A stretch of DNA of 64,000 nt from Escherichia phage vB_EcoM_EP57 (OR544956), one strand, 5' to 3'; positions 31,768 to 63,283 are shown, counted from the first letter of the stretch. The notes: a model not told the origin generated them from the letters alone. Program-made: numbers and translations.

Positions 31768-32686
31768 ATGCAACTTGGTTTCCCAATTATTGATGTAGTT
31801 GTTTTAGTTGGTATTTTAGCATTGTCTATTGGTATTGATTTCTTTGGTCACAAAGAAAATAAAGAAATTTCATTCAAATCCGCAGTTGGTTGGTCGATCT
31901 TTTGGATTGGTGTATCATTAGCTTATTATGGTTTTGTATACTTCCAACATGGTGCCGATTTTGCTAACTTGTTTTTAAGTGGATATGTGTTGGAAAAATC
32001 TTTGTCGGTAGATAACTTGGTAGTATTTGTAGCAGTATTCGCAAGTTTTGGTATTAAAAGCACACACTTGCAGCACAATAGGCACTTACTTGTTAAGTTT
32101 GGGCTGGTATGTTAATATCTTCTTCGGTGCGGTCATCCTTTTCTGTGCAGCTAAAATGGTATTTGCTGGAGATAATGACGCAGAAGTTGATTACTCTAAA
32201 CACTGGGCTACCCGTATTGTTCGTAAACTGTTCCCTGTATCTAATAAAATGGATGGGGAGAAGTTCTTCACAATCGAAAATGGTGTTCGTGTAGCAACTC
32301 CAGCTTTGGTTTGCGTATTCGTGATGGAAATGGTGGATGTAATCTTTGCAGTAGATTCGGTTCCAGCGGTGATCGCAGTGACACAAGAACCCCTGCTTGT
32401 ATTCTCTTCGATGTTATGTGCAATCTTAGGTCTACGTGCTCTGTTCTTTGTTCTTAGTGTCGCACTGAAGTATCTGGTTCACTTGGAGAAAGCAGTTATT
32501 GTGGTTCTGGTGTTTGTAGGCGTTAAACTGATGTATCACCCGTTTGCAGAAACATTGCATGAGAAAATGAGTTTCCTGCCAGCACATATTGATCCAACTA
32601 TTAGTATGTATATCGTGCTTGGTACTTTGGCCCTTGGTGTTATTGCAAGCTTTATCTTCCCTGAAAAAGAAGAAGCTACTGTTTAA
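31768..32686 (+). CDS. terC: TerC-family membrane protein, frameshifted
   Basis: LSVDNLVVF and QH motifs; ORFs 31768..32115 and 32048..32686. Confidence 0.65.
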
Positions 32687-32691
32687 TAAAT

Positions 32692-32717
32692 GAGCCTCCT
32701 TCGGGAGGCTATTTTAT
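32692..32717 (+). terminator. rho-independent terminator
   Basis: GAGCCTCC-TTCG-GGAGGCT plus ATTTTAT. Confidence 0.6.
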
Positions 32718-32728
32718 AGGAGAGACTT

Positions 32729-33079
32729 ATGAGTAATTTTGATGAAATTCAAGAACTTGTTTGGGATTTATCTGGTGATGTGGATTACATTTCAGATTAT
32801 CTTTCAAAAGTTTACCCTGGGGTAAGCGTTATGATTGTGACCAAAGATCCAATTAATTTGCCTCCTAATGTTGTAGCTTGTTGTGGAAGTGGTTCAGGAG
32901 AAGTAGAGCCTGTATCTCGTTGGGAATTAACTAAAGCTGTTTCAAAACGAAACGGTGAAGTTTTGAATATTGATATTGAGCAAATATGGACTTCTCCAGC
33001 AGCCAAATGGAATGATCCAAATGGTTGGGATTTGTTCTTCTGGGATAATGAGACTGATGATGAGGTGTTTTTAAAATGA
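32729..33079 (+). CDS. hypothetical protein (116 aa)
   Basis: ORF. Confidence 0.55.
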   Translation: MSNFDEIQELVWDLSGDVDYISDYLSKVYPGVSVMIVTKDPINLPPNVVACCGSGSGEVEPVSRWELTKAVSKRNGEVLNIDIEQIWTSPAAKWNDPNGWDLFFWDNETDDEVFLK

Positions 33080-33321
33080 AATACTTGTTGGTTGTGTTTG
33101 AAAATATCTGTTTTGCAATAGGGTTGTTTGTTGTAATTTTTGTATTGACAAGCGTAATCAACGGCAGTAAAGTGAGTTTATACCGAGATGGAGAGCAACT
33201 TTATTGCTTCTCTGGAGATTTCAAACACAGATGTATTAATAGCCAAAACGAGGAAAGCAAATATGAAAAAACTAGCCCTGATTTTAATTGGTTGTATCTT
33301 TTTAACAGCTTGCGAGGATGA
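33076..33321 (+). CDS. small membrane protein (81 aa)
   Basis: N-terminal TM helix; overlaps next start. Confidence 0.4.
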   Translation: MKYLLVVFENICFAIGLFVVIFVLTSVINGSKVSLYRDGEQLYCFSGDFKHRCINSQNEESKYEKTSPDFNWLYLFNSLRG

Positions 33322-33700
33322 AACAAATCCTGCACAATACCAACAACCTCCTCAACAATACGCTCAACAAGGATCTGACGGAGATACAACTATTATCAAC
33401 AATGGTGGCGGTTCTAGTAGTAGCGGTGTTGGTGAGTTTGCTACAGGTATGTTGTTAGGGCATATGATGAGTGGCGGTAGTAATCGTAGCAGTGGGGATT
33501 ATAACGATAACAGAACGATTATTAATAAGCATTATAATACACCTAAACCGAAAACTAATTTTTATGGTAAGCCTAAACAAGAGATAAAAACTTATGAAAA
33601 GCCGAGACAAACTTTTAAAACAAATAGTAGCTATACAACTCGTAAATCTTACAATAGCCCTTTAAGTAAAAAGAGTTCATCTCGTAGCAAGCGACGTTAA
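33263..33700 (+). CDS. lipoprotein (145 aa)
   Basis: signal peptide and lipobox LTAC; Gly/Ser-rich. Confidence 0.6.
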   Translation: MKKLALILIGCIFLTACEDETNPAQYQQPPQQYAQQGSDGDTTIINNGGGSSSSGVGEFATGMLLGHMMSGGSNRSSGDYNDNRTIINKHYNTPKPKTNFYGKPKQEIKTYEKPRQTFKTNSSYTTRKSYNSPLSKKSSSRSKRR

Positions 33701-33714
33701 TAAGGAGAAAAACA

Positions 33715-34308
33715 ATGACAATTTCTATTCGTACTTCCATCGTAGGTGTTAAAAGGTTGCCTAATGCTTTGCAAATCACACGCGCTTTGAGGGATACATT
33801 CTCTGCTGTGGACGAGCATAAGATGCTTGATAATCTTTCAAATTGGCCCTATTTCCATTATTTTAAAAATGAAGATGACGAGTTTATAGACGCTGTTTCT
33901 TATGGTTATGATTTCGGTAAGGAGGTTTCTGCTGAAGAATTTGTAGCTATGGTGTTCCCAAACGGTTTGCCTACTCGCAGTAAACGTAAAAAAGGACCAA
34001 AAAACAAGAAACGTGCTACTAATAAAGCTACCATTTTCTTTACTGATGGCACACAATATACGATTAAAGATTTTGAAGAGGTATCTTATACAGCAGGTGG
34101 GAATCTTTCTTTCTACACCATCAAAAAACAAAACTCTACGTTCAGCCATGTTTCTAACATGATTGAAATGTTAGTAGAAGATATTGAAAGCGTAGCTGTG
34201 TTAGGTATGCATAAAAGCTTTTTAATTACAAATATTTCAGATTTCAGTGCAAGTTTATCTGGCCCTGATTTTGAAGCCACGACCACGCATTTCGCTTTTA
34301 AGGTGTAA
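33715..34308 (+). CDS. hypothetical protein (197 aa)
   Basis: ORF with AAGGAG RBS. Confidence 0.55.
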   Translation: MTISIRTSIVGVKRLPNALQITRALRDTFSAVDEHKMLDNLSNWPYFHYFKNEDDEFIDAVSYGYDFGKEVSAEEFVAMVFPNGLPTRSKRKKGPKNKKRATNKATIFFTDGTQYTIKDFEEVSYTAGGNLSFYTIKKQNSTFSHVSNMIEMLVEDIESVAVLGMHKSFLITNISDFSASLSGPDFEATTTHFAFKV

Positions 34309-34311
34309 GTT

Positions 34312-34902
34312 ATGCATACCGAGAGAGACTTGCAACTCTTGTGGTGGGAAGTGATGCAGGAAATAAAAGAAGATTTTCCTGTTTACTACAACATGTTACG
34401 TGAAGCAGGATATAAAGCTTGTGTTAGAAACAAAGTGAATAACTCTTTCGGTTGGTGCAACTACCGAGATAAAATTGTTGTTGTAAATTGGCACTTGCAT
34501 AAGAACTCCACAAGAGATATGATCGTGGATACAATGAAGCACGAAATTGCTCATGCTATTGATGGTTGTATGGGTAAGTTTAGTAGGCACGGTGCTCATT
34601 GGCAAAAACTGGCAGCAGAATTAGGGGCTAATCCTAAAGCCACTTCCAAAGAGCCGTTGAACCACGAATATAAATATGTTCTTGTTCTGGTAGATAGGTT
34701 TGCGACAAGATGTGTTAGAGGTTATAATCGTAAACCTAATCGCATGTACCCAGGTAAGCAACCTAATATGTGGTTGAAATCAGATAAAGAAGGGACCGAA
34801 GGAAAATTATGGTTGTATAAATGGGACGATTGGGTTAAAGTAGCTAAAGAGTACGGTGTTTCACCATATATAAGAGATGCAGAAGAGGAGAATGAAGAAT
34901 GA
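34312..34902 (+). CDS. SprT-like zinc metalloprotease
   Basis: HEIAHAI with downstream HG.HW. Confidence 0.55.
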   Translation: MHTERDLQLLWWEVMQEIKEDFPVYYNMLREAGYKACVRNKVNNSFGWCNYRDKIVVVNWHLHKNSTRDMIVDTMKHEIAHAIDGCMGKFSRHGAHWQKLAAELGANPKATSKEPLNHEYKYVLVLVDRFATRCVRGYNRKPNRMYPGKQPNMWLKSDKEGTEGKLWLYKWDDWVKVAKEYGVSPYIRDAEEENEE

Positions 34903-36011
34903 CAAGTCCATTTTTAAAAGCAGCTACTGGTGGTCAGAAGAAGCCTGAAATGAGCGTATTTGCTGCAACAACAGATGCAAGTAAATCTGTATTCGCTCCA
35001 AGCGTGTTAGATGCCAGTCCTGTTTATGCACCAGCGGCACCGCAAGAAGTTCCAGTTTTGCCTTCTATGACCCGACAAGAGATCGAAGAGATTGGGGCAG
35101 AGGCAGGAACAACCTTGCGTTCCTTGAATGCCGAGGTATTAAAACATCAACGTAGTAATCAAGGCGATCAGATGAGTGAACGACTCACAGCTTTGATTAA
35201 ACAGGCAAAACAACTTGATCCAAACTCTATTAAACAAAGCAAGGGTATTACTAAACTCATTAAAAAAGTTATGGGTATGAAAGAAGACCTGTTTGGGGAG
35301 TTTGATAATGTTAATAACCGTATTGAAGAGTTGGTAAAGAACCTTCAAATGGATATTCGCAAAGAAGAAGATTCCTTGGTATATCTTGAAAAGCTACATC
35401 AAGCTATTGGACAATATGCTGCAAGTTTGAACCGAGATATGCAGCTTCTAACAGCAACCTATGAAAAAGAAGAACAAGCTTTGGCTGCTCTTCCAGAAGA
35501 TGCAGTAGAACAGCGACAAGTGATCCGAGATACTTTGGATCTTCTGGAGATTCGTATTGCAGATTTAAAAGCATTGCGCCTACTGTGTGTCCAAATGGGA
35601 CCGCGTGTACAAGGTATGCAAAAAGTTTCTGCAAGCTTAATGCGATCTGCGCGTAACATAGTAAATAATGTTATTCCTGCTTACTCTGCTAACTTCTCAA
35701 TGTATATAGAGAGCTTACGTCAAATGAAAGCAGCAGAGACGCAGAATAACGTTCTTGATGAATTTAACCTGGCAATTAAACTGGGTAGCGATCTTGCCAC
35801 ACAGAATCAGATCGAAGCAGCAGCACTGGCTAACCGTCAAGTGTTGGATATTGAAACTCTGCGTCACGATCAGGAAAACTTGGTTAAGATGTTGGAAGAA
35901 ACTAACCGCATCAATACGGAAGCCCGTGCTGCTCGTGTTGATTATATTAATGAAGTTCAATCTCTGGAAGACGGGATGGTAGCTGCTGTGAAACGAGGGC
36001 TTGGTAAATGA
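34899..36011 (+). CDS. coiled-coil protein, possible TelA-like
   Basis: 370 aa helical protein in Ter context; assignment by size and composition. Confidence 0.35.
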   Translation: MTSPFLKAATGGQKKPEMSVFAATTDASKSVFAPSVLDASPVYAPAAPQEVPVLPSMTRQEIEEIGAEAGTTLRSLNAEVLKHQRSNQGDQMSERLTALIKQAKQLDPNSIKQSKGITKLIKKVMGMKEDLFGEFDNVNNRIEELVKNLQMDIRKEEDSLVYLEKLHQAIGQYAASLNRDMQLLTATYEKEEQALAALPEDAVEQRQVIRDTLDLLEIRIADLKALRLLCVQMGPRVQGMQKVSASLMRSARNIVNNVIPAYSANFSMYIESLRQMKAAETQNNVLDEFNLAIKLGSDLATQNQIEAAALANRQVLDIETLRHDQENLVKMLEETNRINTEARAARVDYINEVQSLEDGMVAAVKRGLGK

Positions 36012-36205
36012 GAATCCGTATCTATATAATTGATGAAGACATTGGTGTCCGTTATGATGACGAAAAACGATTCGCACCGATGGGAGGTATATATCCCCCA
36101 AGTGTTCTAGCAGTTTGTCGTGATTGTTATATTTATGAAGGTTGTCGTAACTTCCGTAAATTCGAACTCCTTGCAGATATTGACTTCAATGAGGAGGAGG
36201 AGTAA
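36008..36205 (+). CDS. hypothetical protein (65 aa)
   Basis: ORF. Confidence 0.45.
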   Translation: MRIRIYIIDEDIGVRYDDEKRFAPMGGIYPPSVLAVCRDCYIYEGCRNFRKFELLADIDFNEEEE

Positions 36206-36378
36206 TGAAAATATTACGAGTGAATATTGAAACTGCTTGGTGTGGATGCAATGAGGTTGTGGATATCGAAATTGAAGATGATATGTCTCAAGAGGATATA
36301 GAAGATCTTGCGCACGAAACCTTTCAGGATTATTGTAATTACGGGTTCCATATTTTAGAGGAGGAAGAAGATGTTTAA
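36205..36378 (+). CDS. small acidic protein (57 aa)
   Basis: hand-found ORF, GAGGAGGAGG RBS. Confidence 0.4.
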   Translation: MKILRVNIETAWCGCNEVVDIEIEDDMSQEDIEDLAHETFQDYCNYGFHILEEEEDV

Positions 36379-36546
36379 TTGACTCGACAGGAACTGATCA
36401 CAATCATTGAAGATGCTTTTATTGATGGCTGGAATACACAAGATAATGACTGGGGTGGACCCGAAGCTTTTCTGGAACATCATAAAACTTATGGAGACTC
36501 TTGTGAAACCACTGTAGCTCTTGATAATCTGAAGGAGGGTTTGTAA
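36379..36546 (+). CDS. small hypothetical protein (55 aa)
   Basis: hand-found ORF, TTG start. Confidence 0.3.
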   Translation: MTRQELITIIEDAFIDGWNTQDNDWGGPEAFLEHHKTYGDSCETTVALDNLKEGL

Positions 36547-37109
36547 TGGGTTGTTTTAGCTTTTTGTGCAAAGAATCGGGCAAAGCTGCCCTTTCTACTT
36601 CTTTCGACGGATCACCTTGCTACCTCTTTCTTTTGAAGGACGGTGTTGTTATTGAAGAGATGTATGGCAACTATGATAGTTATGGTTGTGTTTTCTCTGG
36701 AAAGGAGGATGAAAACGGCGTTCGTGAACGATTTGAATGGGCTATGGATTGGGGTAAGGTTTGTGATTTGATGCATTCCTCAAATCCAAGGGACGGTATC
36801 GCTATGGTGCTGGAAGAGTACTTTACAGGTGAAATCCCTACAGAACAATCTGACGGAGATCCTAACCAAGGTTGGGGTGATGGTGAAGAAGATCCAGATT
36901 GTTTTTTCAGCACAGAAAAGAATAAGTTTAAACGTGTTGACAACCCTTATCACAAAGTGCATAATACTCTCATTGAAACAGAAGATGACAAGATGGAAAT
37001 TGAAGAAGATGATCCTCTTGTAACACTTCCTGTAAGTGAGTTACAAAAGATCACTAAGGAAGCTTACGATTTGGGCTTCAAAATTGGTAGAGGAGGTATG
37101 CGTGTTTAG
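36546..37109 (+). CDS. acidic hypothetical protein (187 aa)
   Basis: ORF. Confidence 0.55.
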   Translation: MGCFSFLCKESGKAALSTSFDGSPCYLFLLKDGVVIEEMYGNYDSYGCVFSGKEDENGVRERFEWAMDWGKVCDLMHSSNPRDGIAMVLEEYFTGEIPTEQSDGDPNQGWGDGEEDPDCFFSTEKNKFKRVDNPYHKVHNTLIETEDDKMEIEEDDPLVTLPVSELQKITKEAYDLGFKIGRGGMRV

Positions 37110-37380
37110 ATTCAATATTCAAGAAGAAAAAAGTCAGGATTTACCTATTGCTTTCGAAGATCTTGACGTAGGGGCCACATTCATGTATTATGATGCCTAT
37201 GAAGACGCAGGGTTGGATACCTACCGTAACTTGGTGTTCATTAAAAATTCCACAAACAGTGCGATCTGTATTAATGGATCACTAGCACAACGAGGCTATA
37301 CTCATTGCATCCCACCAGATACAAATATGGTGGAAGTAGATTTAGAAGTTACCAATATTACACTTAAGAAGGAGAAATAA
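37102..37380 (+). CDS. small protein, paralog family member A (92 aa)
   Basis: GTG after GAGGAGG; paralog of 38402..38671. Confidence 0.5.
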   Translation: MFRFNIQEEKSQDLPIAFEDLDVGATFMYYDAYEDAGLDTYRNLVFIKNSTNSAICINGSLAQRGYTHCIPPDTNMVEVDLEVTNITLKKEK

Positions 37381-37381
37381 T

Positions 37382-38176
37382 ATGTCCGAGAAAATCAGCC
37401 TGAAAAAACGTCAAGAAAACCTTGCTTTCTCTCTGAAAAAGAATAAGAACCTGAATGAAGGTAAGATTGTTCTTCGTGTAGCATGTGCTCTAGATATTTC
37501 TGGTAGTATGCATGGTCTATATTCTAGTGGGGTAGTGAGTGATTTTGTAGGTAAACTGCTTCCTTTTGGTATGCTGTTCGACGATAATCAACAAATTGAT
37601 ATGTGGGCCTTCAATACGAGTTCCCAAGAGCTTACTCCAGCAACAGCAGATGTTTACGATGACTATGTTGGTAAATGTATGCGTAATGTTCGTATCGGAG
37701 GTGGAACAAATTACGCCCCTGTAATGGCGGATATCTACGATGAGTATTTTGGCACTGTTACTAAATATATTACCACTAAACAAGTGGTACAAGAGGAGGC
37801 TCCAAAGAAAGGTTTCTTTAATCGTCTACTTGGTAAAACTGAAACAGTATCTGTAGAGCGTGAAAAGGTCGTAGCTGTATCTGAACCAGGTGCTGACGTT
37901 ACCCCTGGTGTTGTATTCTTCCAGACAGACGGTGAGAATGGTGATCCTAGTGCTGTTCGTCGTCTTATCGAAGAGAATAAGAATAAACCTATTTATTGGT
38001 TCATGGTTGGCGTTGGTAATGAGAAGTTTGGCTTCCTGAAAGAACTGGCAAATGCTTATGATAATGTTGGTTTTATTGGCATTAAAGATTTAGACTTGAC
38101 AGATTCAGAGCTTTATGACAAACTCTTATCTGAAGAGTTCGGAGAGTGGGTTGTTAAAGTAGGTGCTAAAAAATGA
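37382..38176 (+). CDS. vWA-domain protein, TerY-like
   Basis: MIDAS motif DISGSM; TerD-like N-terminus ISLKK. Confidence 0.65.
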   Translation: MSEKISLKKRQENLAFSLKKNKNLNEGKIVLRVACALDISGSMHGLYSSGVVSDFVGKLLPFGMLFDDNQQIDMWAFNTSSQELTPATADVYDDYVGKCMRNVRIGGGTNYAPVMADIYDEYFGTVTKYITTKQVVQEEAPKKGFFNRLLGKTETVSVEREKVVAVSEPGADVTPGVVFFQTDGENGDPSAVRRLIEENKNKPIYWFMVGVGNEKFGFLKELANAYDNVGFIGIKDLDLTDSELYDKLLSEEFGEWVVKVGAKK

Positions 38177-38421
38177 TCGACGAGCTTGCCTCTCAAGTCA
38201 TAGAAAATTATTGGCGCGAGAGAGAAGCTTTCATTATGCGCAGTCTCAAAGAGTATTTCATTGGGACTGTGCGAATGGAAGATATTGTAAGTAGAGTAGA
38301 GATTCATGTATGGCCCGATTATGAAGAATGGGTTGACAAAGAAAATGAAAATGCTATAATTCTTCGTATATACAAACCGGAGATAACATTAGGAGGAAGA
38401 AGTGTTAAACTTCGAAATTGA
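38173..38421 (+). CDS. hypothetical protein (82 aa)
   Basis: ORF. Confidence 0.5.
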   Translation: MIDELASQVIENYWREREAFIMRSLKEYFIGTVRMEDIVSRVEIHVWPDYEEWVDKENENAIILRIYKPEITLGGRSVKLRN

Positions 38422-38671
38422 TGAGCAAAAAGTAAATAAACGATGCCTTACCATTAAAGATTTGGATGTAGGAGATACTTTCGTCTATGAAAATGCATTT
38501 GACGAAAATGGTTTAGACCTTAGTGAAATCATTGTTTATTTAAAAGTAGATGATGGGGAAAATGATTATTCTGCTGTAGAACTAAACCATCATGCACAAT
38601 TAGTATCAATCCAAAACACATCTAAGCTTTTGGAAGTAGAATTGACTGTAACTGGTATTACACTTAAATAA
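38402..38671 (+). CDS. small protein, paralog family member B (89 aa)
   Basis: GTG after AGGAGGAAG; shares DLDVG.TF.Y..A.D..GLD and EV.L.VT.ITLK. Confidence 0.5.
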   Translation: MLNFEIDEQKVNKRCLTIKDLDVGDTFVYENAFDENGLDLSEIIVYLKVDDGENDYSAVELNHHAQLVSIQNTSKLLEVELTVTGITLK

Positions 38672-38686
38672 TAGAGGAGACAAAAG

Positions 38687-39289
38687 ATGACTGATAAAAT
38701 TTCCCTGAAAAAAGGCTCTAGCGAAAAAATTTCCCTGAAGAAAGTTGCTCCGGCTCTGAAAGAACTACGCCTGGAATTCTCTTGGAAATCTGATTCTAAA
38801 CTAGATCTGGATGTAAGTGCACTGGTTTGTCGTCACAATGCCGCTGGCAATCCTGAAATGCTGTCTGCACGTCATCTGGTTTGCTATGCTAACAAGTTTG
38901 ATCCTGAACGTTCTACCTTCGCTGGTGACGATGTTCGTGATGGAACTGGCAGCATGGAGCAGATTGATATTACTCTGGCTAAAATCTCTCCTGATGCACA
39001 AGAGATTGCCTTTGTTCTGACCATTGATGATGATACAGGTCTGAAACGTTTTGGTCATGCTTCTGAAGGTATGCTTAAAATCTTCGACTCCGAGCGCAAT
39101 GTGGAAATTCTGGATTTTGACTTCCTGGCTCCTGAAGTAGCTGGCAACACAATCTGCCACGTGGCTTCCTTGGTTCGTGAAGATGGGGAATGGAAGCTGA
39201 AAGCATATGGTGTAGGTAAAGCTGGTCTGGATATTTGTGATGTGGTGATGGCCTTCGGTGGTAAAAAAGAATGGTATGAATGTCCGTAA
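38687..39289 (+). CDS. terD: TerD-family stress protein
   Basis: ISLKKG repeats, LDLDVSAL, GDDVRDGTG, GEWKLKAYGVG; highly optimised codons. Confidence 0.8.
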   Translation: MTDKISLKKGSSEKISLKKVAPALKELRLEFSWKSDSKLDLDVSALVCRHNAAGNPEMLSARHLVCYANKFDPERSTFAGDDVRDGTGSMEQIDITLAKISPDAQEIAFVLTIDDDTGLKRFGHASEGMLKIFDSERNVEILDFDFLAPEVAGNTICHVASLVREDGEWKLKAYGVGKAGLDICDVVMAFGGKKEWYECP

Positions 39290-39307
39290 TAATTAACAAA
39301 TGATTTT

Positions 39308-39330
39308 GAGGGGGAGAAATCCCCCTCTTG
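39308..39330 (+). terminator. hairpin, possible weak terminator
   Basis: GAGGGGG-AGAAAT-CCCCCTC, short U-tract. Confidence 0.35.
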
Positions 39331-39356
39331 CAATAAAGCCTCTATCGTGTTATACT
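39328..39356 (+). promoter_or_regulatory. sigma70-type promoter
   Basis: TTGCAA-N17-TATACT upstream of 39389. Confidence 0.5.
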
Positions 39357-39388
39357 AGAAATTCGTTAACTTAAAAAGGAGGCAAAAT

Positions 39389-39910
39389 TTGCTGATAAAA
39401 AACTTTGTAACAGTTGCGTTACTATCCTTAACTGCTTTTACATTTACACCTGTTGTGGCGAAAGCCGAAGCTGCAAACGTAAAAACCGCTAAAGTAGTTC
39501 ACAAATGTACAAAGCAATATAATGATAAAATTCTATTAGCTTGTGCAATTTACGCAGAAGGTCGCGGTCTGGGTAAAAAAGGAATGAATGCCGTTGGGAA
39601 TGTGGTAATCAACAGAAGAAATGATACCTACTTCCCTAACACAGTCAGAGGAGTCTTGTTCCAGAAAGGGCAATTCTCATATGCGAAAACTTTTAACGTA
39701 ACAGAGAAAGATAAGTGGCAGGAAGCAAAAGCAATAGCGGAGCGTTTACTTTATTTAGAGAAACATTTTCCTGAATTGCGGTCTGTTTTAGATGTTACTA
39801 AAGGTGCTCTATACTTCAAGAAACGGAATATAAGAACACACTGGGAACGTGATATGCGTCTTGTTTATCGAGATAAAGTGCATGGTTTCTATCTACCAAA
39901 GGGGAGTTAA
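39389..39910 (+). CDS. secreted SleB/CwlJ-like cell-wall hydrolase
   Basis: signal peptide; AIYAEGRG..VGNVVINR. Confidence 0.6.
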   Translation: MLIKNFVTVALLSLTAFTFTPVVAKAEAANVKTAKVVHKCTKQYNDKILLACAIYAEGRGLGKKGMNAVGNVVINRRNDTYFPNTVRGVLFQKGQFSYAKTFNVTEKDKWQEAKAIAERLLYLEKHFPELRSVLDVTKGALYFKKRNIRTHWERDMRLVYRDKVHGFYLPKGS

Positions 39911-39911
39911 A

Positions 39912-40196
39912 ATGCAAGAAGATAATACTGTTGTTGTAGCAAGTTACCTGGTTGTCGGTCTTACTGAAGAGGATGTATACTACACCCGTAAGCATTTAGA
40001 AGCATACGCTACTTTGTTTATGGAAGATGAAAAGGATGTAGATAAATATAGCATTGACATGATCAACGACAGTATTTATCCTTGTATGGTTCTTAAAGTA
40101 GATGCTGTGTTGTGGGAGCGTTTTGCAAGGACTCATGATGCTGTAGAATGCTCCGCAGTAATGTCTCAAAACAACATTTTAGGGGAGATTCACTGA
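39912..40196 (+). CDS. hypothetical protein (94 aa)
   Basis: ORF trimmed to ATG. Confidence 0.5.
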   Translation: MQEDNTVVVASYLVVGLTEEDVYYTRKHLEAYATLFMEDEKDVDKYSIDMINDSIYPCMVLKVDAVLWERFARTHDAVECSAVMSQNNILGEIH

Positions 40197-40420
40197 TGGG
40201 AGAAGTCATTGAAGTCAATTTTCGCACTAAACAGAAAGTGCAAAAATATGTCGTTATTAAAAACATTTGCGTTGTCTGCTTCAATACAGTAATATACGAC
40301 TCACGACGCGGAGAAAACGAACCTTACATTGAAATTTCTAAGAACAAAGGTCAATGTATTTGTAAGAACTGTGCAGTAGCTATTAAGGAGGTTGTAAATG
40401 AAAACGCTTGGGACCAATGA
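40196..40420 (+). CDS. Cys-rich small protein (74 aa)
   Basis: C..C ... C..C spacing. Confidence 0.5.
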   Translation: MGEVIEVNFRTKQKVQKYVVIKNICVVCFNTVIYDSRRGENEPYIEISKNKGQCICKNCAVAIKEVVNENAWDQ

Positions 40421-40589
40421 AACTGGCGAGATCTCTCTTCAAGAAGTGACAAACGACAAACTGATTAAACTACGGGACGTAGCCCGTGACCATCTCCAAG
40501 AATCTTTTAAAGAATATATGGAAGCACGAGATCGTGTGATCCAAATCCAACAAGAAATGATTAAACGTGGGATTGTAGCCGACAGTTAA
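40398..40589 (+). CDS. hypothetical protein (63 aa)
   Basis: ORF with AAGGAGG RBS. Confidence 0.5.
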   Translation: MKTLGTNETGEISLQEVTNDKLIKLRDVARDHLQESFKEYMEARDRVIQIQQEMIKRGIVADS

Positions 40590-40605
40590 TATAACGGAGG
40601 GGAGA

Positions 40606-41169: not shown

Positions 41170-41177
41170 GAGAGAAA

Positions 41178-42798: not shown

Positions 42799-42805
42799 GT
42801 GAAGT

Positions 42806-53849: not shown

Positions 53850-53860
53850 TTAAACCCTCC

Positions 53861-53886
53861 ATAAAAAGAAAGCCCCTTTCGGGGCT
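53861..53886 (-). terminator. rho-independent terminator between fibre genes
   Basis: AGCCCC-GAAA-GGGGCT plus TTCTTTTTAT on minus strand. Confidence 0.6.
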
Positions 53887-53890
53887 TCTG

Positions 53891-55429: not shown

Positions 55430-55491
55430 TTATCTCTCCTATCATTAGACCATTCTATTGGAAGAAGAGGGGGGAATCCCCCTCTATTCCA

Positions 55492-57704
55492 TTAGGTTGT
55501 TGGCACATCTACTACTGGCGTTGGGCGAATAACCGCAGTATTACCTACAGAAACATTACTGGAATCATTAGGTATGGTTTTAATTCTAACTCCAGCACTT
55601 GTAGGCGTTACAATTGGATCTGCAATGTCTATTTTAACTGGGTTAGTCCACGTATCATTATCTTGATAAGGTGCACGAGTAATAACTGTGTCCAAATCTG
55701 CTCCACCTACGCCAGCACCAGGAATACGGATACGTGTCCCTGCTGACAGAGGGTAATGATACAACCAAGAAGCATTTGTTGCTGTCCCGTTAGGAGTCAA
55801 GTTCTGTGTCAGGAAGGTATCTCCTGCCTGTGTAGCTCGAATACCGAAAGCTGGGATATCTGGAATATATGCCCCACTTGTTGTTACAAGGAAGAACGTA
55901 TTATCCGCCTTGACTATCATATCACCTTTGTCAAACTCTTTCCCTGTTGGGAAATGCATTCCATCAATGTTTCGACTAGGATTAGGCTCTAAGTAATAAA
56001 CTTTGCCCGTTGTCCCTACAATAGCTCCAATACCACCTGCGATATTGGTATACATATTAGCTTCAACATTACAGTTGACACGATGAATATCCGAGTAACG
56101 GCAACGGCTCCACTGTGGACGACCAGTAACCATCGTCTTGCCATCTGGGTAACAGTTTACGTTAACCATTTCAAGAACAGATTTTTCTCTACGGAAGAAT
56201 CCATCATAAAATGTTCCTGGACCAGATTCAGGTTGACCAACACAATCGAAGATATTACAGGTGATGTTAGACATTGAAAGCCAAGAAGCTATACCGAACA
56301 ACTGCAATGCAGCGCAACGAATATTTTCAAAGCTAACTCTGTTTTCATAACCTGGCCCAGCGGAAACTCCCGCAAAAACACGCCCAGTTTTGGTGTGAAT
56401 GTTACGAACAGAATAGTTAAAGCATGGGTTTGAAGGTCTACCCTGTGCCGGAACTACCGGATTACCCTCTTCGTCCAGAACTGCGTTAGTTCCCCACTCC
56501 AAATAAATCATACGGATATTACTTGCAAGTGTGCTACCGTCTGTTTTAGGCTCCCCATAAACACCGTCAATCGTAAAATCTTTACTTCCATACATTACAA
56601 CTGCGCCAGTTGCCAAACCTGTCCCAACAGATACGGTTTGATCTGGATCGCCATGAATGTTTTCGATAGAAATATTACGACCAACTTCTACGTGGACAAT
56701 CTGACGGCAACGTTTTGCAAAAACGTTACGAATTGTAATATTCTTGCAATATTGATCATCAGGGATTCCGTAACCATATGGTCCTTTACCAGCTACACCG
56801 ATACCGATACCCCAGTTGGACAGAGGAATAGGAGCGTTAGTCCCATCGATATTAGACAGGTAAATATTCTCAATCACACAACCATCATCATAATGTTTAT
56901 TGATGACGTTCAGTTCTATCGCATCACCTTGCATGTCCATGAAGGTAAGGTTACGGAAGACACCACGTGTTACTGGTTCCCCTGTCCCTTGTTGAAGCCA
57001 TATAACCCGTTTTTAAAAGTACAGTTATCAATTTCAAAAGTACCTGATATTGGGTTGCCTTGGAATACCAAGCTACCAACTTGACCTGCGCGAGGAGCAC
57101 CGTCCCACAAACAATCGAACATGCGCACAGCACCACCCCAATACATAACACGAGAGTTACGGAAAGTTGTGCCTTCTACTGTAGCATTTTGCACACGATA
57201 GTCGCGTTGACCACGGAACACACCCCCACGCAAAGTGATATCTTGAATATCAAAAGAGCTTGTCGTGAAAGTCATATCGCAACCGTAAGCATCGAGAATC
57301 TTGCTTTTCGAAGCTTTTGCTGCTAACAGTGCCGCCTGGAAAGCTGCTTCTGGTGTGGTATAGGTAGTTGTATTGTTAGCAAATTCTGACAAGTAGACAA
57401 CATCGAATAAATCGTTGTATGTTCCACCACGAGGGGTTAACAGTCCTTCCGTATTAGTTAGAACCCATGCGTTTGGACCTAATCCACCGCTTGTCTCTAA
57501 TGTGTCAGAGGCCAAAATACTTTTTGGTAAACTTCCAGCCCAACGATAACGACCAGCACCACGTCCAATCGTCTGATTTTTAGCTGTCAGGGTTACGTTA
57601 TTACCAAAGCTTGTAGGCAAATGGACAAATTGTCCACGTTCAACAGCCAGTGCAGAAAGATCTACAGATCCCCCAGAATAAGTCATTACTCCAGAAACAG
57701 ACAA
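55492..57704 (-). CDS. tailspike-like beta-helix protein, frameshifted
   Basis: ORFs 56970..57704 and 55492..56940, contiguous in different frames. Confidence 0.45.
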
Positions 57705-57709
57705 AGATG

Positions 57710-58261
57710 TTAAAGTTCCTGTAATGTTAGGAGGTAGTGTGTAGGAAGACTGTGACTATCTTCTATGCGGAAAGCTTCCCCCAGAACCTGAATAACACCA
57801 TTGATCGTAACAATAGCACTATCAAAGATGTAAGGAGGACTAATTACTGTTTCATAACCAGTTGCACCAGAATATACCCAAGGGGTGACTTCTGTTGCCA
57901 ATTGTTCTGTCTTCAGTCCCCACAATACCCAGTTGTTATCTCCTACTGGAGTCCCTTGCATAGGGATAGGGTTAACCAATGTAGCGTTAGGAGCATAGTA
58001 ATAACCGCTCAATACTCCATTCTGGAAATAACGAAGTTGGTTAAAAACTGTTTCGTTTGTGCCTTGCGCCCAATCCAATGGGCTTTTAAAGAAAAAGTTG
58101 TCAACAAGGGCTTTTCTCAGGGTTGGTATCAACCCTGATTCTGTTTCAATACTCTCTGTAGCACTTCCATTAATAACATCATGGAGTTGGTTAGATGAGA
58201 AAATAACCAGGTCTACGCCCTGTTCGAGAGACGTTGCTGGATATGTTGGGAATGTTGCCAT
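57710..58261 (-). CDS. tail/baseplate-associated protein (183 aa)
   Basis: ORF in structural operon. Confidence 0.5.
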   Translation of the reverse strand: MATFPTYPATSLEQGVDLVIFSSNQLHDVINGSATESIETESGLIPTLRKALVDNFFFKSPLDWAQGTNETVFNQLRYFQNGVLSGYYYAPNATLVNPIPMQGTPVGDNNWVLWGLKTEQLATEVTPWVYSGATGYETVISPPYIFDSAIVTINGVIQVLGEAFRIEDSHSLPTHYLLTLQEL

Positions 58262-58264
58262 TAA

Positions 58265-58516
58265 TTACCCCTTATTCTGTGTACGTTTAACTATGTCATC
58301 TAGCATCATTTGGATAGTCGCATTCTTGAGGTCCATAATCTTTTCAATTTTTTGCTCAAGGGTGTTGTTATTTGCCATTAATGTAGAGTTAATTTGATTT
58401 AGCATCTGGGTAAGTTCGGCTTTAGTTGCGTAAGTTGATTCAACAAAGACCAACTTCTTCTCTAGCTCTCGACTTTTCTCCTCCATTTCCTCAAGATCAG
58501 AGCCGAATTTATCCAT
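58265..58516 (-). CDS. coiled-coil structural or chaperone protein (83 aa)
   Basis: helical, charged. Confidence 0.45.
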   Translation of the reverse strand: MDKFGSDLEEMEEKSRELEKKLVFVESTYATKAELTQMLNQINSTLMANNNTLEQKIEKIMDLKNATIQMMLDDIVKRTQNKG

Positions 58517-58557
58517 TTTTTGTTTGAAAAAGAACCAGATGACTCCGATTAAAGGGA

Positions 58558-58950
58558 TTATTGCATCCTTTGCAAGTCCCCATGCGTAGCATCTGTAATA
58601 TTTGCCGACAAGTGATTATGACTGTTATCTAGAACTTGAATAGATAAAGTAACTTCTTTATTACCATTCCAAGTAGCCTCACCAGTAGCATCACCTGCCA
58701 TTGTAATCTTAGTTCCAACTAAAGGCAAGTAAGTATCAGGTAAAGTTGGAAGAAAGTCATCCACCAAATAGCGAATCCATAAACCGATATTATTAAGAAT
58801 CCAGTTCATTTCTTCGCAAGTCATGATTTGACCATAATCCATACCAACTGTGCGGATGGTTTCTTTAGGTCTAATTTTGTTTGTGTTTAAAGTTCCTGGG
58901 AGCGTTACAGTTTGTGTAGCCCAGTCAGGATAATATATTGGCTTCGCCAT
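58558..58950 (-). CDS. baseplate-associated protein (130 aa)
   Basis: position after baseplate genes. Confidence 0.45.
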   Translation of the reverse strand: MAKPIYYPDWATQTVTLPGTLNTNKIRPKETIRTVGMDYGQIMTCEEMNWILNNIGLWIRYLVDDFLPTLPDTYLPLVGTKITMAGDATGEATWNGNKEVTLSIQVLDNSHNHLSANITDATHGDLQRMQ

Positions 58951-58959
58951 TTAAACTCC

Positions 58960-59589
58960 TTAATCTATTTGCTTGAGAAGCGTACACATGCGTCCTGTTT
59001 CATCCCCAGTAGATTCCATGTACAGGGAACCTAAACCACCAATACCATGAGGCGGTTTGGTAGCATAATAAGAACTAAAACCAAAAGCTGATCCTGCTTT
59101 TGCTCCAAGACGGTAGCTACTAATGATAGGGAAAACACTTAGCAACTGTTCTAAAGCTTGATCAGATTGAAGACACAGGTTGTAGAAAAACACATCAAAG
59201 GTTTTATTCAAACCTACGTAAGTATTAAGCGTTTCACGCTCTGTTCCTGTGAAACGGGCGAAGATATCAATTATGTCACCACGAGTCCCCGATGAGGCTA
59301 CGCGGTAAGCCCTGATTTTTAATATTGTTCTATACTCTTCATCATCAGAGCCATTACGTTCGATCCCCATTTCTTCTCCTAAGATATCTAGGTATTTGCC
59401 TGTGGCTGTGGAGATCAAGCGGTGTTTAGCAAGATAGATCATTGCCTGATCTATCTTTTGCTTTTCACTGGATACGATGTAGAGGAGCTTGACAATGTTA
59501 GGAGAAGATTTAAAATCTTCAATCAGAAGGTTTTTAACGTCTTCATTGATACTGGCCCAAGTTGTTACATGGTCAACACTCACTGCCAT
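58960..59589 (-). CDS. baseplate protein, gpI-like (209 aa)
   Basis: immediately downstream of J-like gene. Confidence 0.4.
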   Translation of the reverse strand: MAVSVDHVTTWASINEDVKNLLIEDFKSSPNIVKLLYIVSSEKQKIDQAMIYLAKHRLISTATGKYLDILGEEMGIERNGSDDEEYRTILKIRAYRVASSGTRGDIIDIFARFTGTERETLNTYVGLNKTFDVFFYNLCLQSDQALEQLLSVFPIISSYRLGAKAGSAFGFSSYYATKPPHGIGGLGSLYMESTGDETGRMCTLLKQID

Positions 59590-59591
59590 TT

Positions 59592-60969
59592 TTACACTCC
59601 ATACTCGTAAGAAATGTTATCAAGGTCAAAAGAAGGGACAACATTATAAGCAGGAACTATATTATTCTCTGTATATTTACTGTCATCCTCAGTATTAAGT
59701 TTAACATAAACACGAAGAGAAGTCAAGCGTCCAAAAGCAAGTGCTGCATAAATAACCCCTTTGATTTGATCGTTCGTTACTGAAGAACCTAATTCAAAGT
59801 AAGCTTGCAGGTTTTGTAAAGCTTCTACGATGTTTTGTTTTTCTGTTCCACTTAAAGTTGTTCCGTTGACAGTTTGATAAACAAGTTTTACAGAATACAT
59901 AGCAGAAGCACCTTTCTTCAGCACTCCCTCCATAAACTATAGTCTGGAAAGTCATAGCTGGAGCATGTTCTTGATCATGTAACGTAGGGTTATCATAAAT
60001 CTTCACCTTAGTAACACCATCTGTAAGTAACAGAGCTTTCACAATAGCTGCTCGTGTCCCTGCGTTAGCTTCGTCAACGTTGTCATTGAAACGAGAGCGG
60101 AATTCTGCGTCTGTCTCAACATCTCGACCAGGGGAAAATGAATAGAAGTTACCACTATCAAGATAACCTGTAAAGGTAGAAGATATCCCTGTAATAGACT
60201 CCACACCAACAGGATTGTATCCTTTCTCTGCTGCAACTACCGGAATCTCACTCCACTTGGTTCCAACCGGAACACTAGCATAAAATTTAATAGGAGTTAC
60301 CAGTCCCACTGGAGTATCACTGGTTAAAGAAGTAAAACCAATTGATAAGTTACCTGAATCAGAAAATACAAGACTACGATCAGCTTCTGTTAAATTTGCC
60401 TTGATAAAAGTTTCAAGATCGGTTATAAATGTAGAAGAACCAGGTGCAAGTGTTTTACTGTTTAGTCCTCCATCGACCGCACTTTGTGCATAAAAAGTAA
60501 TATTTGGAACACCTGTAGCAGTTGCATTAGCACGAGAGATTTGATAAGCTGCAATCTTAGCATTCAACATGGTTGGTGTGCTAACATAATAGTTCATATC
60601 ACTATCAGAGTTGAAGTAAATATCCGTGCCTAACTCATAAGTCCAAGCTGCTTTGTTATTACTCTTAACATATGCATAACCTGTACTTGCTGCTGCCCCT
60701 GCTCGATAGAAACCGCGTTTAGAAAAAATTTCGTCAAGATAAATACCTTCTGCGCCATCTAGTGTTTGAGTATTATAAACACCTTGCATACCTTCCCACA
60801 ATGTGTAATCTGTGTATGCAATTATTCTAAACAGTTGTCCGATCACAGTATCTTCAGAAGTGGCTGCATCTGCACCAAATGTGTTTTTTACTGCTGTCAT
60901 ATAATTGTTTAGAACATCGTCAAAAGTCGGGATTACAAATCCCGCATCTGTTAAACCATATTCGTCCAT
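59592..60969 (-). CDS. baseplate J-like protein, frameshifted
   Basis: ORFs 59794..60969 and 59592..59933; shift at an A-run. Confidence 0.45.
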
Positions 60970-61151
60970 TAGTCATCCTCTTTGGTAGATTGTGATCTGC
61001 CCCAACGTAAATCAATAAGATTTTTCATGAGGCGAGAAGGGGTTATCATGAAAACAAAAGCCCAACCCATCCATTCAGGAATTTCTTTTTCTATTCCTAA
61101 AAAGATAAACATGCCTGTCATAACAGACATGCCTACAGCGTTCCAGACCAT
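60969..61151 (-). CDS. small membrane protein (60 aa)
   Basis: two TM segments. Confidence 0.45.
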   Translation of the reverse strand: MVWNAVGMSVMTGMFIFLGIEKEIPEWMGWAFVFMITPSRLMKNLIDLRWGRSQSTKEDD

Positions 61152-61202
61152 TAACTTTTGATGTTTCGGGTAAATTAGTAATTGTAGTTGACATTTTTAC
61201 TC

Positions 61203-63283
61203 CTATATATAAAATTTTTGTGTTGTTACTAAATCTTCTCCAGATTTAGTGGCTAATGTAATTCCACTTATGGTGGCAATCTCAACATTTACCTGTTTAA
61301 GAGTGATATCCTGTAAATAAACGTTCAAAGGCACGTTACCCATATAGAAAACTTGGGATTGAGAATTAACTACCGTGATAGAATCGTGCATTATTTGAGG
61401 ATAGGCCCATATATATTGTGTAAGTCCGTCAAACTTATTGGCGTTCAACACTATGTTACCTATAATCATCTTCCAAAGATACGTGCGGTAGTTTGATTTA
61501 GGATCAAAGCCATACAAAGGTGCAAGAGTAGCATCTGGAACAAAACCTGCATCTTACCTTCCAACAACCAGTCATAACACTCTGAACAGTAAAAATCAAA
61601 AGCTTCAGGAATGTAGTAATCAGACGGGAAGTTAACTTTCTCCATCAAACCGTTGCCGATAATTGATGGCAAGAACGGAAGCAATGTTACCTTGGCTCCT
61701 GGGTAAGTTGCTCTAGTATCTGTTGCAAACTTTGTAACTCTTAATCCTAGTTTACGAGACAAAAATGCATAGTATTCGTCAAACGGCGTTCCTGTTTTAT
61801 AATTATCTATTGTTCCTGCATCTTGTGCAAATAAACCTGTTTCTGTGTTGAATGCCAGTTTGGTAGTGTAATCATATATGCAAGGCATTTTACTTGCTGT
61901 ATTATACCACCACCAAGGCTCACCAATTTGAATGACAACTGGAATATTATTAGCTTGCGAAATAGATGCTATTTTATTAATAACATTTTGCAAATATTCC
62001 ATACCTTCGTCAATAGTTGGAGACAACACATAACTAGGAGGTTTATACCCTGTTGCTGCAAGAGCATCGTTCCAATCATGCTGGACCCATTCTACAGGAC
62101 AAACTGTGCTCATCAATTCAAAACTTAAAGAGTTCATTATTGTGTAGCCCTTCTCGTTTGCTATAGAATGGAAGCTGTTAAGCCAAGCTTCTGTAGCCGG
62201 ATTCAGGAAAACAGATTTATTTAAAGCCCAAGATGTTCCATTCCATGAGAACTCATAATAGTGAGACATTCCGTTATAATGGTTAATCATCCCACGATAA
62301 CCTAGTGCATATGTATTATAAATAACTCTCTCTGGAGTCAGGTTATACATATCATCATAAGATGTGCACATGCGAATATCATGTTCAGGCTGGACAAGGT
62401 TGCTGACTTTCATCATACTGTAACCAGAAGTAGGTTCAAGAAGAGTGAAAGTAAACCAAGCCTCTTGACTGGCAATAGGTACAATCTCTTCTATTTCTTC
62501 GTACCTTGCTGTAATCAAAGAGAAGAAAATATTATCTACAGCACTCATATCCAAAGGAATATCATTATTAGGGCCAGAAAAGATATTACCAAAATCTAAC
62601 TTGATTGTAGCTGTTTTACCATCTTCTGAAATATCTAAAGCGTAGAATCCTAAACTGACATAATGAACACTTTTATCCAGGAGAGTTACAGTCAAAGTCG
62701 GCACCAAAGGTTCTTCTTTAAAACCTGGCATGTTTTGACTAATTTCCATTTTAAACCAAAGTTTCTCTGAACTTAAATCTGTGTGGGGTAAATACCCAAC
62801 ACCTTTATGGTCATATTTGTCAACTGTGCTCCAGATAACCCCTGCCAAACCTGCTGTTGTTCTGTTTACAAATCTTGCAGTAAAAGAGTCTCCATGAGAT
62901 ACAATAGAACAACTTTCCGTTGCTTGAGAATCTATTGTCCAATACATAGGAGAGAACATTTTAACGTCTTTTGTAGTCCAAGTTATTGGAGTAGTATTTT
63001 CTTGGATAGTAGTTATAATACAATTGATGGTTGTTTCAACCATCATATTATTTTGACTAATCCCTGAAACTTGGAGGGAGAAGTTAAGATCTATTGAGTT
63101 CTTTGGTCGTTCAAATACTTCAACCACAATAGTAGCAGAATCAGCATCATCAGGGAACACAAGTGTTCCCGATTTTGCAATATAATCTCTACCAGCGACT
63201 GCTGTTCCGTCAACAGTCGTGTAGTTAAATGAACTCGCATTTACTCTCTTGTCTCGCGTGACAGTAAATATAGCTTGTTTCAT
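61203..63283 (-). CDS. large tail/baseplate structural protein, frameshifted
   Basis: ORFs 61466..63283 and 61203..61517. Confidence 0.45.

Follow-up and report, generated by a model that had tools for sequence, protein, structure and literature searches.

Why should the deposited genome of a phage that plaques and grows carry several of its conserved genes in pieces? In the first 64 kb of Escherichia phage vB_EcoM_EP57 (OR544956; positions 1..64000, considered irrespective of strand and hereafter called the window), adjacent same-strand open reading frames (ORFs) overlap in different frames, and both halves of each pair look like protein. The phage itself forms plaques, its host range, efficiency of plating and one-step growth curves have been reported, and its tail is contractile by electron microscopy (PMC11657129). 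The sequenced sample was a cultured phage lysate that yielded Illumina reads, the assembly is described as de novo only, with SPAdes 3.13.0 and no mention of a reference-guided step, the accessions given are those of GenBank alone, and the authors report 305 genes in 130.7 kb and no TerL (PMC11657129). An initial annotation of the window had reasoned that a viable phage cannot have lost its primase-helicase and baseplate, ascribing the interruptions mostly to homopolymer-type sequencing or assembly errors and alternatively to a defective particle or a metagenomic consensus. The viability argument is sound: the source was not a non-viable or non-replicating entity, as EP57 plaques and grows (PMC11657129), yet the deposited primase-helicase and Baseplate_J genes are broken, and OR544956 also lacks an intact tail fibre tip with its chaperone and an intact NrdD, although the phage is viable. 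We conclude that the broken genes in OR544956 are artefacts of sequence production, a data-quality problem and no biological feature.

The window is collinear with positions 53-77,497 of tuntematon (NC_052660.1 / MN850618), a Phapecoctavirus, at 99.2% nucleotide identity. Gene order is the same, and base 1 of the window is base 53 of tuntematon, so that the two start within 53 bp of each other and their coordinates are in register. What distinguishes them is 13.5 kb (17%) that tuntematon carries and the window does not, a loss divided among about 36 deletions, the smallest of 1 bp and the largest of 2,227 bp; the alignment of the whole 64 kb contains no insertion longer than 3 bp in the window. 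By the end of the window the offset from tuntematon has grown to 13,497 bp, which agrees with the 13,868-13,918 bp offset between the tRNA cluster of tuntematon (99,422-101,433) and that of EP57 as published (85,554-87,515; PMC11657129). The EP57 authors likewise reported 99.37% identity to tuntematon but an intergenomic similarity (VIRIDIC) of only 92.4% (PMC11657129). Damage in the window extends to 44 of 142 tuntematon genes (12 frameshifted, 20 truncated, 10 absent and 2 with in-frame deletions), and eight of the ORFs left truncated or chimeric are identical to EP57 proteins in GenBank, encoded on a contig of 130,723 bp (WPK29215/29252/29285/29289/29290/29291/29295/29302). The sites singled out initially were thus a correct but much too short list.

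Each ORF pair in that list exists and corresponds to one intact gene in relatives; tuntematon and other relatives encode every flagged protein as a single ORF (592, 197, 1017, 495, 717 and 324 aa). On the plus strand, the TerC gene (PF03741) has lost 56 bp at 32076..32078, a frameshift that leaves ORFs 31768-32115 and 32048-32686, and these bases are present in all three relatives that anchor there. The primase-helicase (Toprim/DnaB_C) lacks 7 bp (GTCATCT) at 45520, kept in 17/17 relatives; the lesion falls at residue 493 of 592, within the DnaB_C domain, and yields ORFs 44041-45561 and 45477-45812. A 91-bp deletion at 50527..50528 divides the nucleotidyltransferase (gp125 homologue) into ORFs 50366-50593 and 50590-50868. 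The remaining flagged genes lie on the minus strand. The colanic-acid-degrading tailspike (gp130 homologue; ORFs 55492-56940 and 56970-57704) has lost 4 bp (GGAT) at 56997, again kept in 17/17 relatives, and carries a second lesion of 280 bp at 57754..57755. The Baseplate_J (PF04865) wedge gene lacks 110 bp at 59912..59913, kept in 9/9 relatives, and is split into ORFs 59592-59933 and 59794-60969. The gp141 homologue, a large structural gene with a Calx-beta domain annotated as NCTSP (non-contractile tail sheath protein), has a 73-bp deletion at 61549..61550 that leaves ORFs 61203-61517 and 61466-63283. A further interruption, proposed only as possible at 18531-19014, proved real: the gp057 and gp058 homologues (18434..18650) have lost 13 bp at 18434 and 124 bp at 18650.

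These lesions bear directly on the proposed homopolymer cause. None of those in the flagged genes (56, 7, 91, 4, 280, 110 and 73 bp) is a 1-2 bp change in a mononucleotide run, and base-by-base alignments refute slippage at these sites. The Baseplate_J break in particular had been placed at an A-run, but what occurred there is the absence of 110 bp and not a slip, although the junction happens by chance to fall in the motif CCTTTCTTC. Hence the suspicion of a production error was right and its type was wrong, the lesions being block deletions.

The same kind of damage recurs across the rest of the window. On the minus strand, a cluster in the early-gene region (2015..3028) comprises six deletions (668, 356, 445, 36, 352 and 152 bp) between which islands of 86, 71, 188 and 18 nt are kept, and the gp027 homologue is lost to a 357-bp deletion at 8387..8388. 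An intergenic repeat region together with the NADAR, CapR-endonuclease and ATPase genes (15018..16696, strand unassigned) holds lesions of 1, 3, 28, 14, 29, 39, 123, 375 and 1,061 bp. On the plus strand, positions 23409..27450 have deletions of 1,160 bp (23409), 1,628 bp (26477), 437 bp (27320) and 128 bp (27449), by which gp075, gp076 and gp083 are lost and gp084 and NrdD are broken. The gp102 homologue (36379, plus) lacks 223 bp relative to a long allele and 28 bp relative to a short one, a frameshift in either case, and the gp111 homologue (40322, plus) has a 6-bp in-frame deletion of bases that are invariant in 17/17 relatives. Tail genes on the minus strand are heavily affected. The WD40/Big_2 tail protein (gp128 homologue) has lost its 3' 40% and stop codon to a 1,090-bp deletion at 52248, a block that varies between relatives; the tail fibre (gp129 homologue) has a 486-bp in-frame deletion at 54476..54477 in a hypervariable collagen-like segment and measures 512 aa (WPK29290.1) against 674 when intact. 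A 1,247-bp deletion (58585..58586) in the variable receptor-binding cassette costs a lipoprotein gene its first 5 codons and a gpH-like tail fibre its C-terminal 65%, and leaves nothing of the tail-fibre assembly chaperone. The swappable tailspike cassette (gp136-gp140 homologues) lacks 2,227 bp at 61147..61148, at least 2,146 bp relative to every anchoring relative, and the tail protein gp142 homologue is frameshifted by a 25-bp deletion at 63909.

Taken over the window, these deletions are unique to the record and bear no trace of recombination or selection. At no junction was the sequence contiguous in a relative, with up to 17 independent relatives compared per site, and no junction was found among 110 matching phage records, IMG/VR, GTDB genomes and JGI metagenomes, nor did contig look-ups by exact protein give a hit; the uniqueness and abundance of the lesions are far beyond chance. 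Natural indel polymorphism, or a cassette swap held in common with some relative, was therefore rejected on zero common junctions. The best that any relative could do was to shrink the gp102 event from 223 to 28 bp by way of the short allele, and the tailspike-slot gap stayed at 2,146 bp or more. Junctions show microhomology of only 0-4 bp and clean flanks, end points fall inside genes, and deleted lengths are distributed 6/14/13 modulo 3, with no in-frame bias.

The deletions are far from evenly spread, however. Missing positions make up 6,732 of 9,061 variable positions (74%) as against 4,352 of 53,880 conserved ones (8%), and mean conservation is 0.578 for deleted bases versus 0.903, a difference matched by 0 of 3,000 permutations. 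Several large missing blocks (1,160, 437 and 375 bp) nevertheless lie in well-conserved DNA, which means that divergence alone is not a full account. Deletion sizes fit a lognormal (KS p = 0.64) or log-uniform (0.32) distribution, and the fit to the exponential expected of simple random coverage gaps (Lander-Waterman) is marginal (0.08), suggesting that the gaps are a mix of divergence-driven and coverage-driven dropouts. A GC/AT coverage bias was rejected, deleted DNA having 40.2% GC against 39.5% overall. A pile-up of mismatches at junction edges was also considered as a mapping signature and set aside: mismatches within 25 nt are only modestly enriched (1.9%, compared with 0.75%), many junctions are flanked by perfectly clean sequence, and the edge-mismatch evidence is weak.

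The sequence that was retained is of high base-level quality and bears a normal signature of purifying selection. Substitutions relative to tuntematon comprise 232 synonymous, 41 non-synonymous and no nonsense changes, with 85% at third codon positions, and 81% of the differences from tuntematon also occur in other relatives. The absence of nonsense changes and the strong synonymous bias exclude genome decay as a cause; comparison of the window with tuntematon and the relatives revealed no build-up of nonsense or non-synonymous changes beside the indels, as relaxed selection would leave. Substitutions private to the window number 38 synonymous and 10 non-synonymous. Very low coverage should raise base errors, yet private non-synonymous changes are rare.

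A second genome from the same paper, vB_EcoP_EP32B (OR544955), carries the same lesion signature. It is a Mosigvirus, with a different reference, and its loss is smaller (~5% versus 17% in OR544956). Its base 1 coincides with base 1 of its nearest reference, O157 typing phage 3, and over 25 kb it has eight block deletions of 58-321 bp plus deletions of 17 and 34 bp, with microhomology of 0-3 bp, that break gp32, td, nrdB and a ligase gene.

Deletions at sites of low coverage or dropout are familiar from the reference-based genomes that amplicon-based viral consensus pipelines produce, and some consensus tools can cut low-coverage regions and fuse the flanks. Genomes of that kind resemble the EP57 record in having deletions only, at uncovered or unmappable places and without regard to frame, with accurate flanks and the register of the reference preserved; the EP57 record differs in that its gaps bear no N marks, that it was released as a genome, and that the software step, absent from the paper, is one we infer. 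In the window, record-unique lesions, deletions only, reference register, enrichment in divergent DNA and accurate retained sequence are found together. We consider it very probable that the window is a faulty reconstruction of a viable Phapecoctavirus, namely a reference-guided consensus from which unsupported positions were dropped and whose flanks were joined. Illumina reads would have been mapped to a tuntematon-like reference and a consensus written out, with positions that had no or too little read support deleted and their flanks fused without N fill. Whole cassettes would disappear where the EP57 allele differs so much from the reference that its reads fail to map, as in the tailspike slot, the tail-fibre tip and chaperone, the collagen-like segment of the fibre and small accessory genes, and random coverage dips in conserved DNA would produce gaps of small to medium size (1-1,160 bp). 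Wherever the length of a gap cannot be divided by three, one gene becomes two overlapping, protein-like ORFs. We infer both the exact software step and the low coverage. The metagenomic consensus suggested earlier comes near to this reading, because a consensus-building step would have dropped unsupported or strain-variable stretches; the source, on the other hand, was a cultured lysate and not a metagenome. Counterpoints to the consensus model are that the paper names de novo assembly only, that deletion sizes fit the exponential somewhat less well than a lognormal or log-uniform distribution, that several large gaps fall in well-conserved DNA, and that private non-synonymous changes are rarer than very low coverage should make them.

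Among other explanations, the best placed, although we regard it as unlikely, is that SPAdes de novo contigs, broken where strains vary or coverage is low, were ordered on tuntematon and joined end to end with no N spacers between them. SPAdes de novo assembly is the method that the paper names (PMC11657129), assemblies of mixed or low-coverage lysates do break at variable cassettes, and the high base-level quality is compatible with it. Islands of 18, 39, 70, 78 and 85 nt kept between deletions are too small for contigs, however, abutted contig ends are not expected to give gaps of only 4, 6 or 7 bp or junctions entirely free of short duplications, and the sibling OR544955 begins exactly at a reference base 1.

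That the deletions are physically real, present in a decaying copy or in lysate genomes that were defective or carried multiple deletions, seems highly improbable. Clean junctions, the accessory or variable nature of some lost blocks, which a phage might shed, and the in-frame contraction of a collagen-like repeat would suit such an origin. Yet some 36 deletions in 64 kb strike the primase-helicase, Baseplate_J, NrdD and the tail fibre with its chaperone without in-frame bias, and even TerL was not found in the paper, while EP57 plaques and grows normally (PMC11657129). The lack of nonsense substitutions, the strong synonymous bias, junctions present in no relative or metagenome, and an unrelated sibling from the same study with the same pattern all speak against real deletions, and the defective particle of the initial annotation finds no support in them.

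Homopolymer-type errors, as 1-bp indels causing the frameshifts, have a negligible chance of being the explanation: window positions 560-15018 do include a few homopolymers that differ by 1 bp from those of tuntematon, some of these differences being private, albeit among few relatives only, but the lesions in the flagged genes are all 4-2,227 bp, none lies in a homopolymer, and the data are Illumina. Programmed frameshifting occurs in phage tail-assembly chaperone genes (lambda G/GT type), where, as in the EP57 pairs, two overlapping same-strand ORFs are both protein-like. Ribosomal frameshifting or bypassing that joins the ORF halves in vivo is just as remote, because the resemblance is superficial: real recoding is conserved among relatives, has a slippery site and misses no sequence, whereas here all relatives have uninterrupted ORFs, the window lacks 7-110 nt of conserved coding sequence per site, and slippery-site logic is neither needed nor present. 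Comparison with the intact orthologues refutes recoding, and a literature search on recoding in Phapecoctavirus returned nothing relevant. A Logan contig with the same 482-aa tailspike fragment was examined as seemingly independent support for the 4-bp deletion and rejected; it keeps the 4 bp and has an unrelated Ser499-to-stop change instead.

The consequences reach beyond one phage. OR544956 and OR544955 are public genome records short of 5-17% of their sequence with no N markers, and OR544956 has about one gene in three broken over its first 64 kb. Truncated proteins already stand in NCBI nr as real (e.g., WPK29252.1 and WPK29290.1), and such records can seed spurious protein clusters and inflate gene counts. 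Taxonomy based on intergenomic similarity can be distorted, as illustrated by 99.4% identity alongside 92.4% VIRIDIC similarity, and safety or therapy assessments can be misled by statements such as 'no TerL found'. Gapped records can be flagged automatically with a practical recipe drawn from these lesions: the sequence differs from a reference by deletions alone, which no other record shares and which show no preference for reading frame; variable cassettes have dropped out; the substitutions are clean and mostly synonymous; and the coordinates stay in register with that reference.

There is a slight chance that a minority of the missing blocks are genuine features of EP57, a natural tail-fibre or tailspike variant inside a faulty record. 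Two blocks are candidates, namely the 486 bp by which the collagen-like segment of the tail fibre is shortened in frame and the emptied swappable tailspike slot; Schickermooser, a natural relative, likewise has no tailspike gene at the swappable slot.

Two sub-regions, searched by megablast in a set of 50,697 phage records, identified the window as a phAPEC8-like E. coli myovirus of the genus Phapecoctavirus, with Escherichia phage tuntematon (NC_052660.1) as its nearest record (~99.2% identity). The earliest indication of a problem was the correspondence by megablast of 8,001 window bases, in six pieces, to ~11.9 kb in every close relative. Whole-window alignment showed that tuntematon 53–77,497 is collinear with window 1–64,000, so that 64.0 kb stands for 77.4 kb of the reference. 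The missing 13.5 kb (17%) are spread over the entire window in ~36 lesions of 1 to 2,227 bp, points at which bases present in tuntematon are lacking and the flanks abut. The damage is far wider than the initial annotation had described, reaching 44 of tuntematon's 142 genes: 12 have a frameshift, 20 are truncated, 10 are absent, and 2 carry an in-frame deletion. The tRNA cluster of EP57 (85,554–87,515, minus strand; PMC11657129) has the same gene order as that of tuntematon (99,422–101,433) and is offset from it by 13,868–13,918 bp, versus 13,497 bp at the window's last base.

The overlapping ORF pairs that the initial annotation had read as interrupted genes are all present, and each matches one unbroken gene in tuntematon and numerous independent assemblies, the relatives encoding single ORFs where the window has split pairs. 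Base-by-base alignment located the missing bases: 56 bp in TerC (window 32076–78), 7 bp (GTCATCT) in the primase-helicase (45520, at residue 493 within DnaB_C), 91 bp in the nucleotidyltransferase (50527–28), 4 bp (GGAT) and 280 bp in the colanic-acid-degrading tailspike (56997 and 57754/55), 110 bp in the Baseplate_J gene (59912/13), and 73 bp in the NCTSP/Calx-beta structural gene (61549/50). A further site, proposed only as a possibility at 18531–19014, was borne out, with 13 bp (18434) and 124 bp (18650) missing in the gp057/gp058 homologues. Pfam searches of intact orthologues confirmed TerC, Toprim plus DnaB_C, Baseplate_J, Tail_spike_N, and NCTSP, and returned no match at E ≤ 0.01 for the intact nucleotidyltransferase. 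A Logan contig with the same 482-aa tailspike fragment was rejected as support for the 4-bp deletion, since the 4 bp are present there. That contig (L044, Logan SRR29980973_1001, 688–3741), from an independent sample, instead has an unrelated Ser499-to-stop change that divides the 1017-aa colanic-acid-degrading tailspike into 498 and 482 aa; either a genuine mutation or an error in the unitig may account for it.

The window lesions are exclusively deletions; compared with tuntematon, the window carries no inserted stretch above 3 bp. The lone 18-nt 'unaligned' stretch (window 2359–2376) is an exact copy of tuntematon 3915–3932 and therefore a tiny retained island within a missing block; the shortest such islands between adjacent lesions measure 18, 39, 70, 78, and 85 nt. 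Microhomology at the junctions (0–4 bp) is at chance level, and the deleted lengths divide 6/14/13 by remainder mod 3, indicating that in-frame events were not selected for. End points lie inside genes, so that conserved domains and both start and stop codons are lost.

We compared these junctions with as many as 17 independent relatives at each site, which were found through exact matches to intact window proteins among NCBI records and ENA and Logan assemblies. All 34 junctions tested, including those of 4, 6, 7, 13, and 25 bp, were contiguous in none of these relatives, and the missing length was constant across all of them save where they differ in cassette alleles. The junction sequences were likewise found in none of 110 matching phage records, IMG/VR, GTDB genomes, or JGI metagenomes. 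Natural alleles of the small gene after the 57-aa ORF (window 36205–36546; ~11473–11871 in relatives' loci L019–L026) come in two lengths, 67 aa or 132 aa (the latter tuntematon gp102), and EP57's true allele decides whether the gap there is 28 or 223 bp.

Deletions are concentrated in variable DNA: across tuntematon 14.6–77.5 kb, the window lacks 6,732 of the 9,061 variable positions versus 4,352 of the 53,880 conserved ones, and a mean conservation as low as that of the deleted bases (0.578 versus 0.903) arose in none of 3,000 random placements. The large missing blocks (223, 486, 1,061, 1,090, 1,247, 1,628, and 2,227 bp) are variable cassettes between conserved flanks, among them a collagen-like fibre segment, a fibre tip with its chaperone, and a swappable tailspike slot. 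Conserved DNA holds the small lesions together with some large ones (1,160, 437, and 375 bp), and the GC content of the deleted DNA carried no unusual signal. The tailspike cassette of Phapecoctavirus lies between the 717-aa NCTSP and 495-aa Baseplate_J genes (~5434–8511 in relatives' loci L011–L018; window junction 61147). Its contents vary by relative, comprising an endosialidase-like protein of 921 aa, a SASA-domain protein of 531 aa, a pectate-lyase-like protein of 580 aa, or other tailspikes of 635–756 aa; in Schickermooser (L018) the slot holds no tailspike gene.

The retained sequence is of high quality. Among positions covered by at least eight relatives, 211 of 261 window–tuntematon differences are common to some other relative and are ordinary polymorphisms, leaving only 50 private positions in 37.2 kb. 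Substitutions relative to tuntematon are mostly synonymous (232 versus 41 non-synonymous and no nonsense; 85% at third codon positions), as are the window-private ones (38 versus 10), and the 865-aa DNA polymerase has the same protein sequence as its counterpart in many other phages. Neither error-prone reads nor a slow decay into pseudogenes is compatible with this healthy pattern; excisions account for all gene damage in the window.

EP57 (OR544956) was described as a genome of 130,723 bp with 39% GC, 305 genes, and 'no TerL found', 99.37% identical to tuntematon and yet with only 92.4% intergenomic similarity to it (PMC11657129; BMC Microbiol 2024;24:528). It forms plaques, has a host range, efficiency of plating, and one-step growth curve on record, and shows a contractile tail by electron microscopy (PMC11657129). 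Such a viable phage is irreconcilable with true loss of the primase-helicase, Baseplate_J, tail fibre tip and chaperone, NrdD, and TerL, and the initial annotation's argument from viability is upheld by plaque formation despite the broken primase-helicase and Baseplate_J genes in the record. The same paper reads the missing TerL and the surplus hypothetical proteins as phage properties. It also places EP57 in Autographiviridae, although the phage belongs to Phapecoctavirus and is a myovirus of Stephanstirmvirinae, and its abstract labels the two Mosigvirus phages as Phapecoctavirus.

A sibling genome from that study, vB_EcoP_EP32B (OR544955; PMC11657129), shares the pattern. Its first 25,000 bases were compared with NC_041863.1 (1–26,511); from an exact 1:1 start they correspond to positions 1–26,211 in E. 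coli O157 typing phage 3, and they align in at least 10 pieces with every relative among the matches listed. They contain eight block deletions of 58–321 bp plus others of 17 and 34 bp, with microhomology of 0–3 bp and mixed frames, and the genes for gp32 SSB, thymidylate synthase, nrdB, and DNA ligase are split. That an unrelated phage processed by the same pipeline bears this signature too implicates the pipeline rather than biology. The OR544955 record title reads 'complete genome'.

Reference-guided reconstruction is the best-supported source of the lesions; the identity of the record and the properties of the lesions were observed, and from these we infer the software step. Reads, or sequence derived from them, would have been placed on the nearest GenBank genome, and a consensus exported in which inadequately supported positions were dropped and the flanks joined with no N fill. 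EP57's own alleles of divergent cassettes would have been unmappable and so vanished, coverage dips within conserved DNA would have left small and medium gaps, and any gap length not divisible by three would have produced an overlapping ORF pair. The published methods list Illumina reads, Trimmomatic, and SPAdes 3.13.0, and mention de novo assembly alone (PMC11657129). Islands of 18–85 nt are incompatible with concatenated de novo contigs and are expected of a position-by-position consensus that drops unsupported positions. A sub-variant in which contigs were ordered on the reference and then abutted is less likely given the same islands, the 4–7-bp gaps, and the lack of junction duplications. 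Homopolymer-type errors, the cause favored in the initial annotation, fit neither the sizes nor the contexts of the lesions, none of those in the flagged genes lying in a homopolymer in base-level alignments; its conclusion of sequencing or assembly error in a viable phage stands in substance, and its mechanism does not. Real defective or decaying genomes are rejected by the lack of nonsense changes, the viability of the phage, the like pattern in the sibling, and junctions seen nowhere else. Recoding is dismissed because relatives have single ORFs and conserved codons are missing from the window. The broken genes are real in record OR544956 and are not a real biological feature.

Eight lesion-made window ORFs are exact matches to GenBank vB_EcoM_EP57 proteins (WPK29215.1, WPK29252.1, WPK29285.1, WPK29289.1, WPK29290.1, WPK29291.1, WPK29295.1, and WPK29302.1), and artefactual truncated or chimeric EP57 proteins, the eight looked up, are present in NCBI nr. 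These matches place the window within OR544956, and its register with tuntematon shows it to be, evidently, the opening 64 kb of that record. Four of them (WPK29252.1, WPK29285.1, WPK29290.1, and WPK29295.1) represent their own 90%-identity clusters, of 1–2 members each. Caution is warranted with OR544956, OR544955, and their truncated nr proteins, and the lesion signature offers a recipe for detecting gap-joined consensus genomes.

At seven positions, most of them in short homopolymers, the window differs from tuntematon by 1 bp (window 560, 5254, 5263, 8625, 9081, 9366, and 15018); these are its sole candidates for homopolymer-type errors, fall outside the range of the initial annotation (31768–63283), and are unrelated to its flagged genes. 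The difference at 9081 is common to other relatives, tuntematon being the odd one out; the 1–2 relatives available share none of those at 8625 (within the gp029 homologue), 9366, and 5254/5263. Five small or medium lesions (28, 14, 29, 39, and 123 bp) lie clustered at window 15269–15882 (tuntematon 17685–18531), in 600 nt of an intergenic repeat region beside the lone plus-strand gp049 homologue (annotated repeat_region, tuntematon 18062–18140), where reads placed ambiguously among repeats may have contributed to the dropouts.
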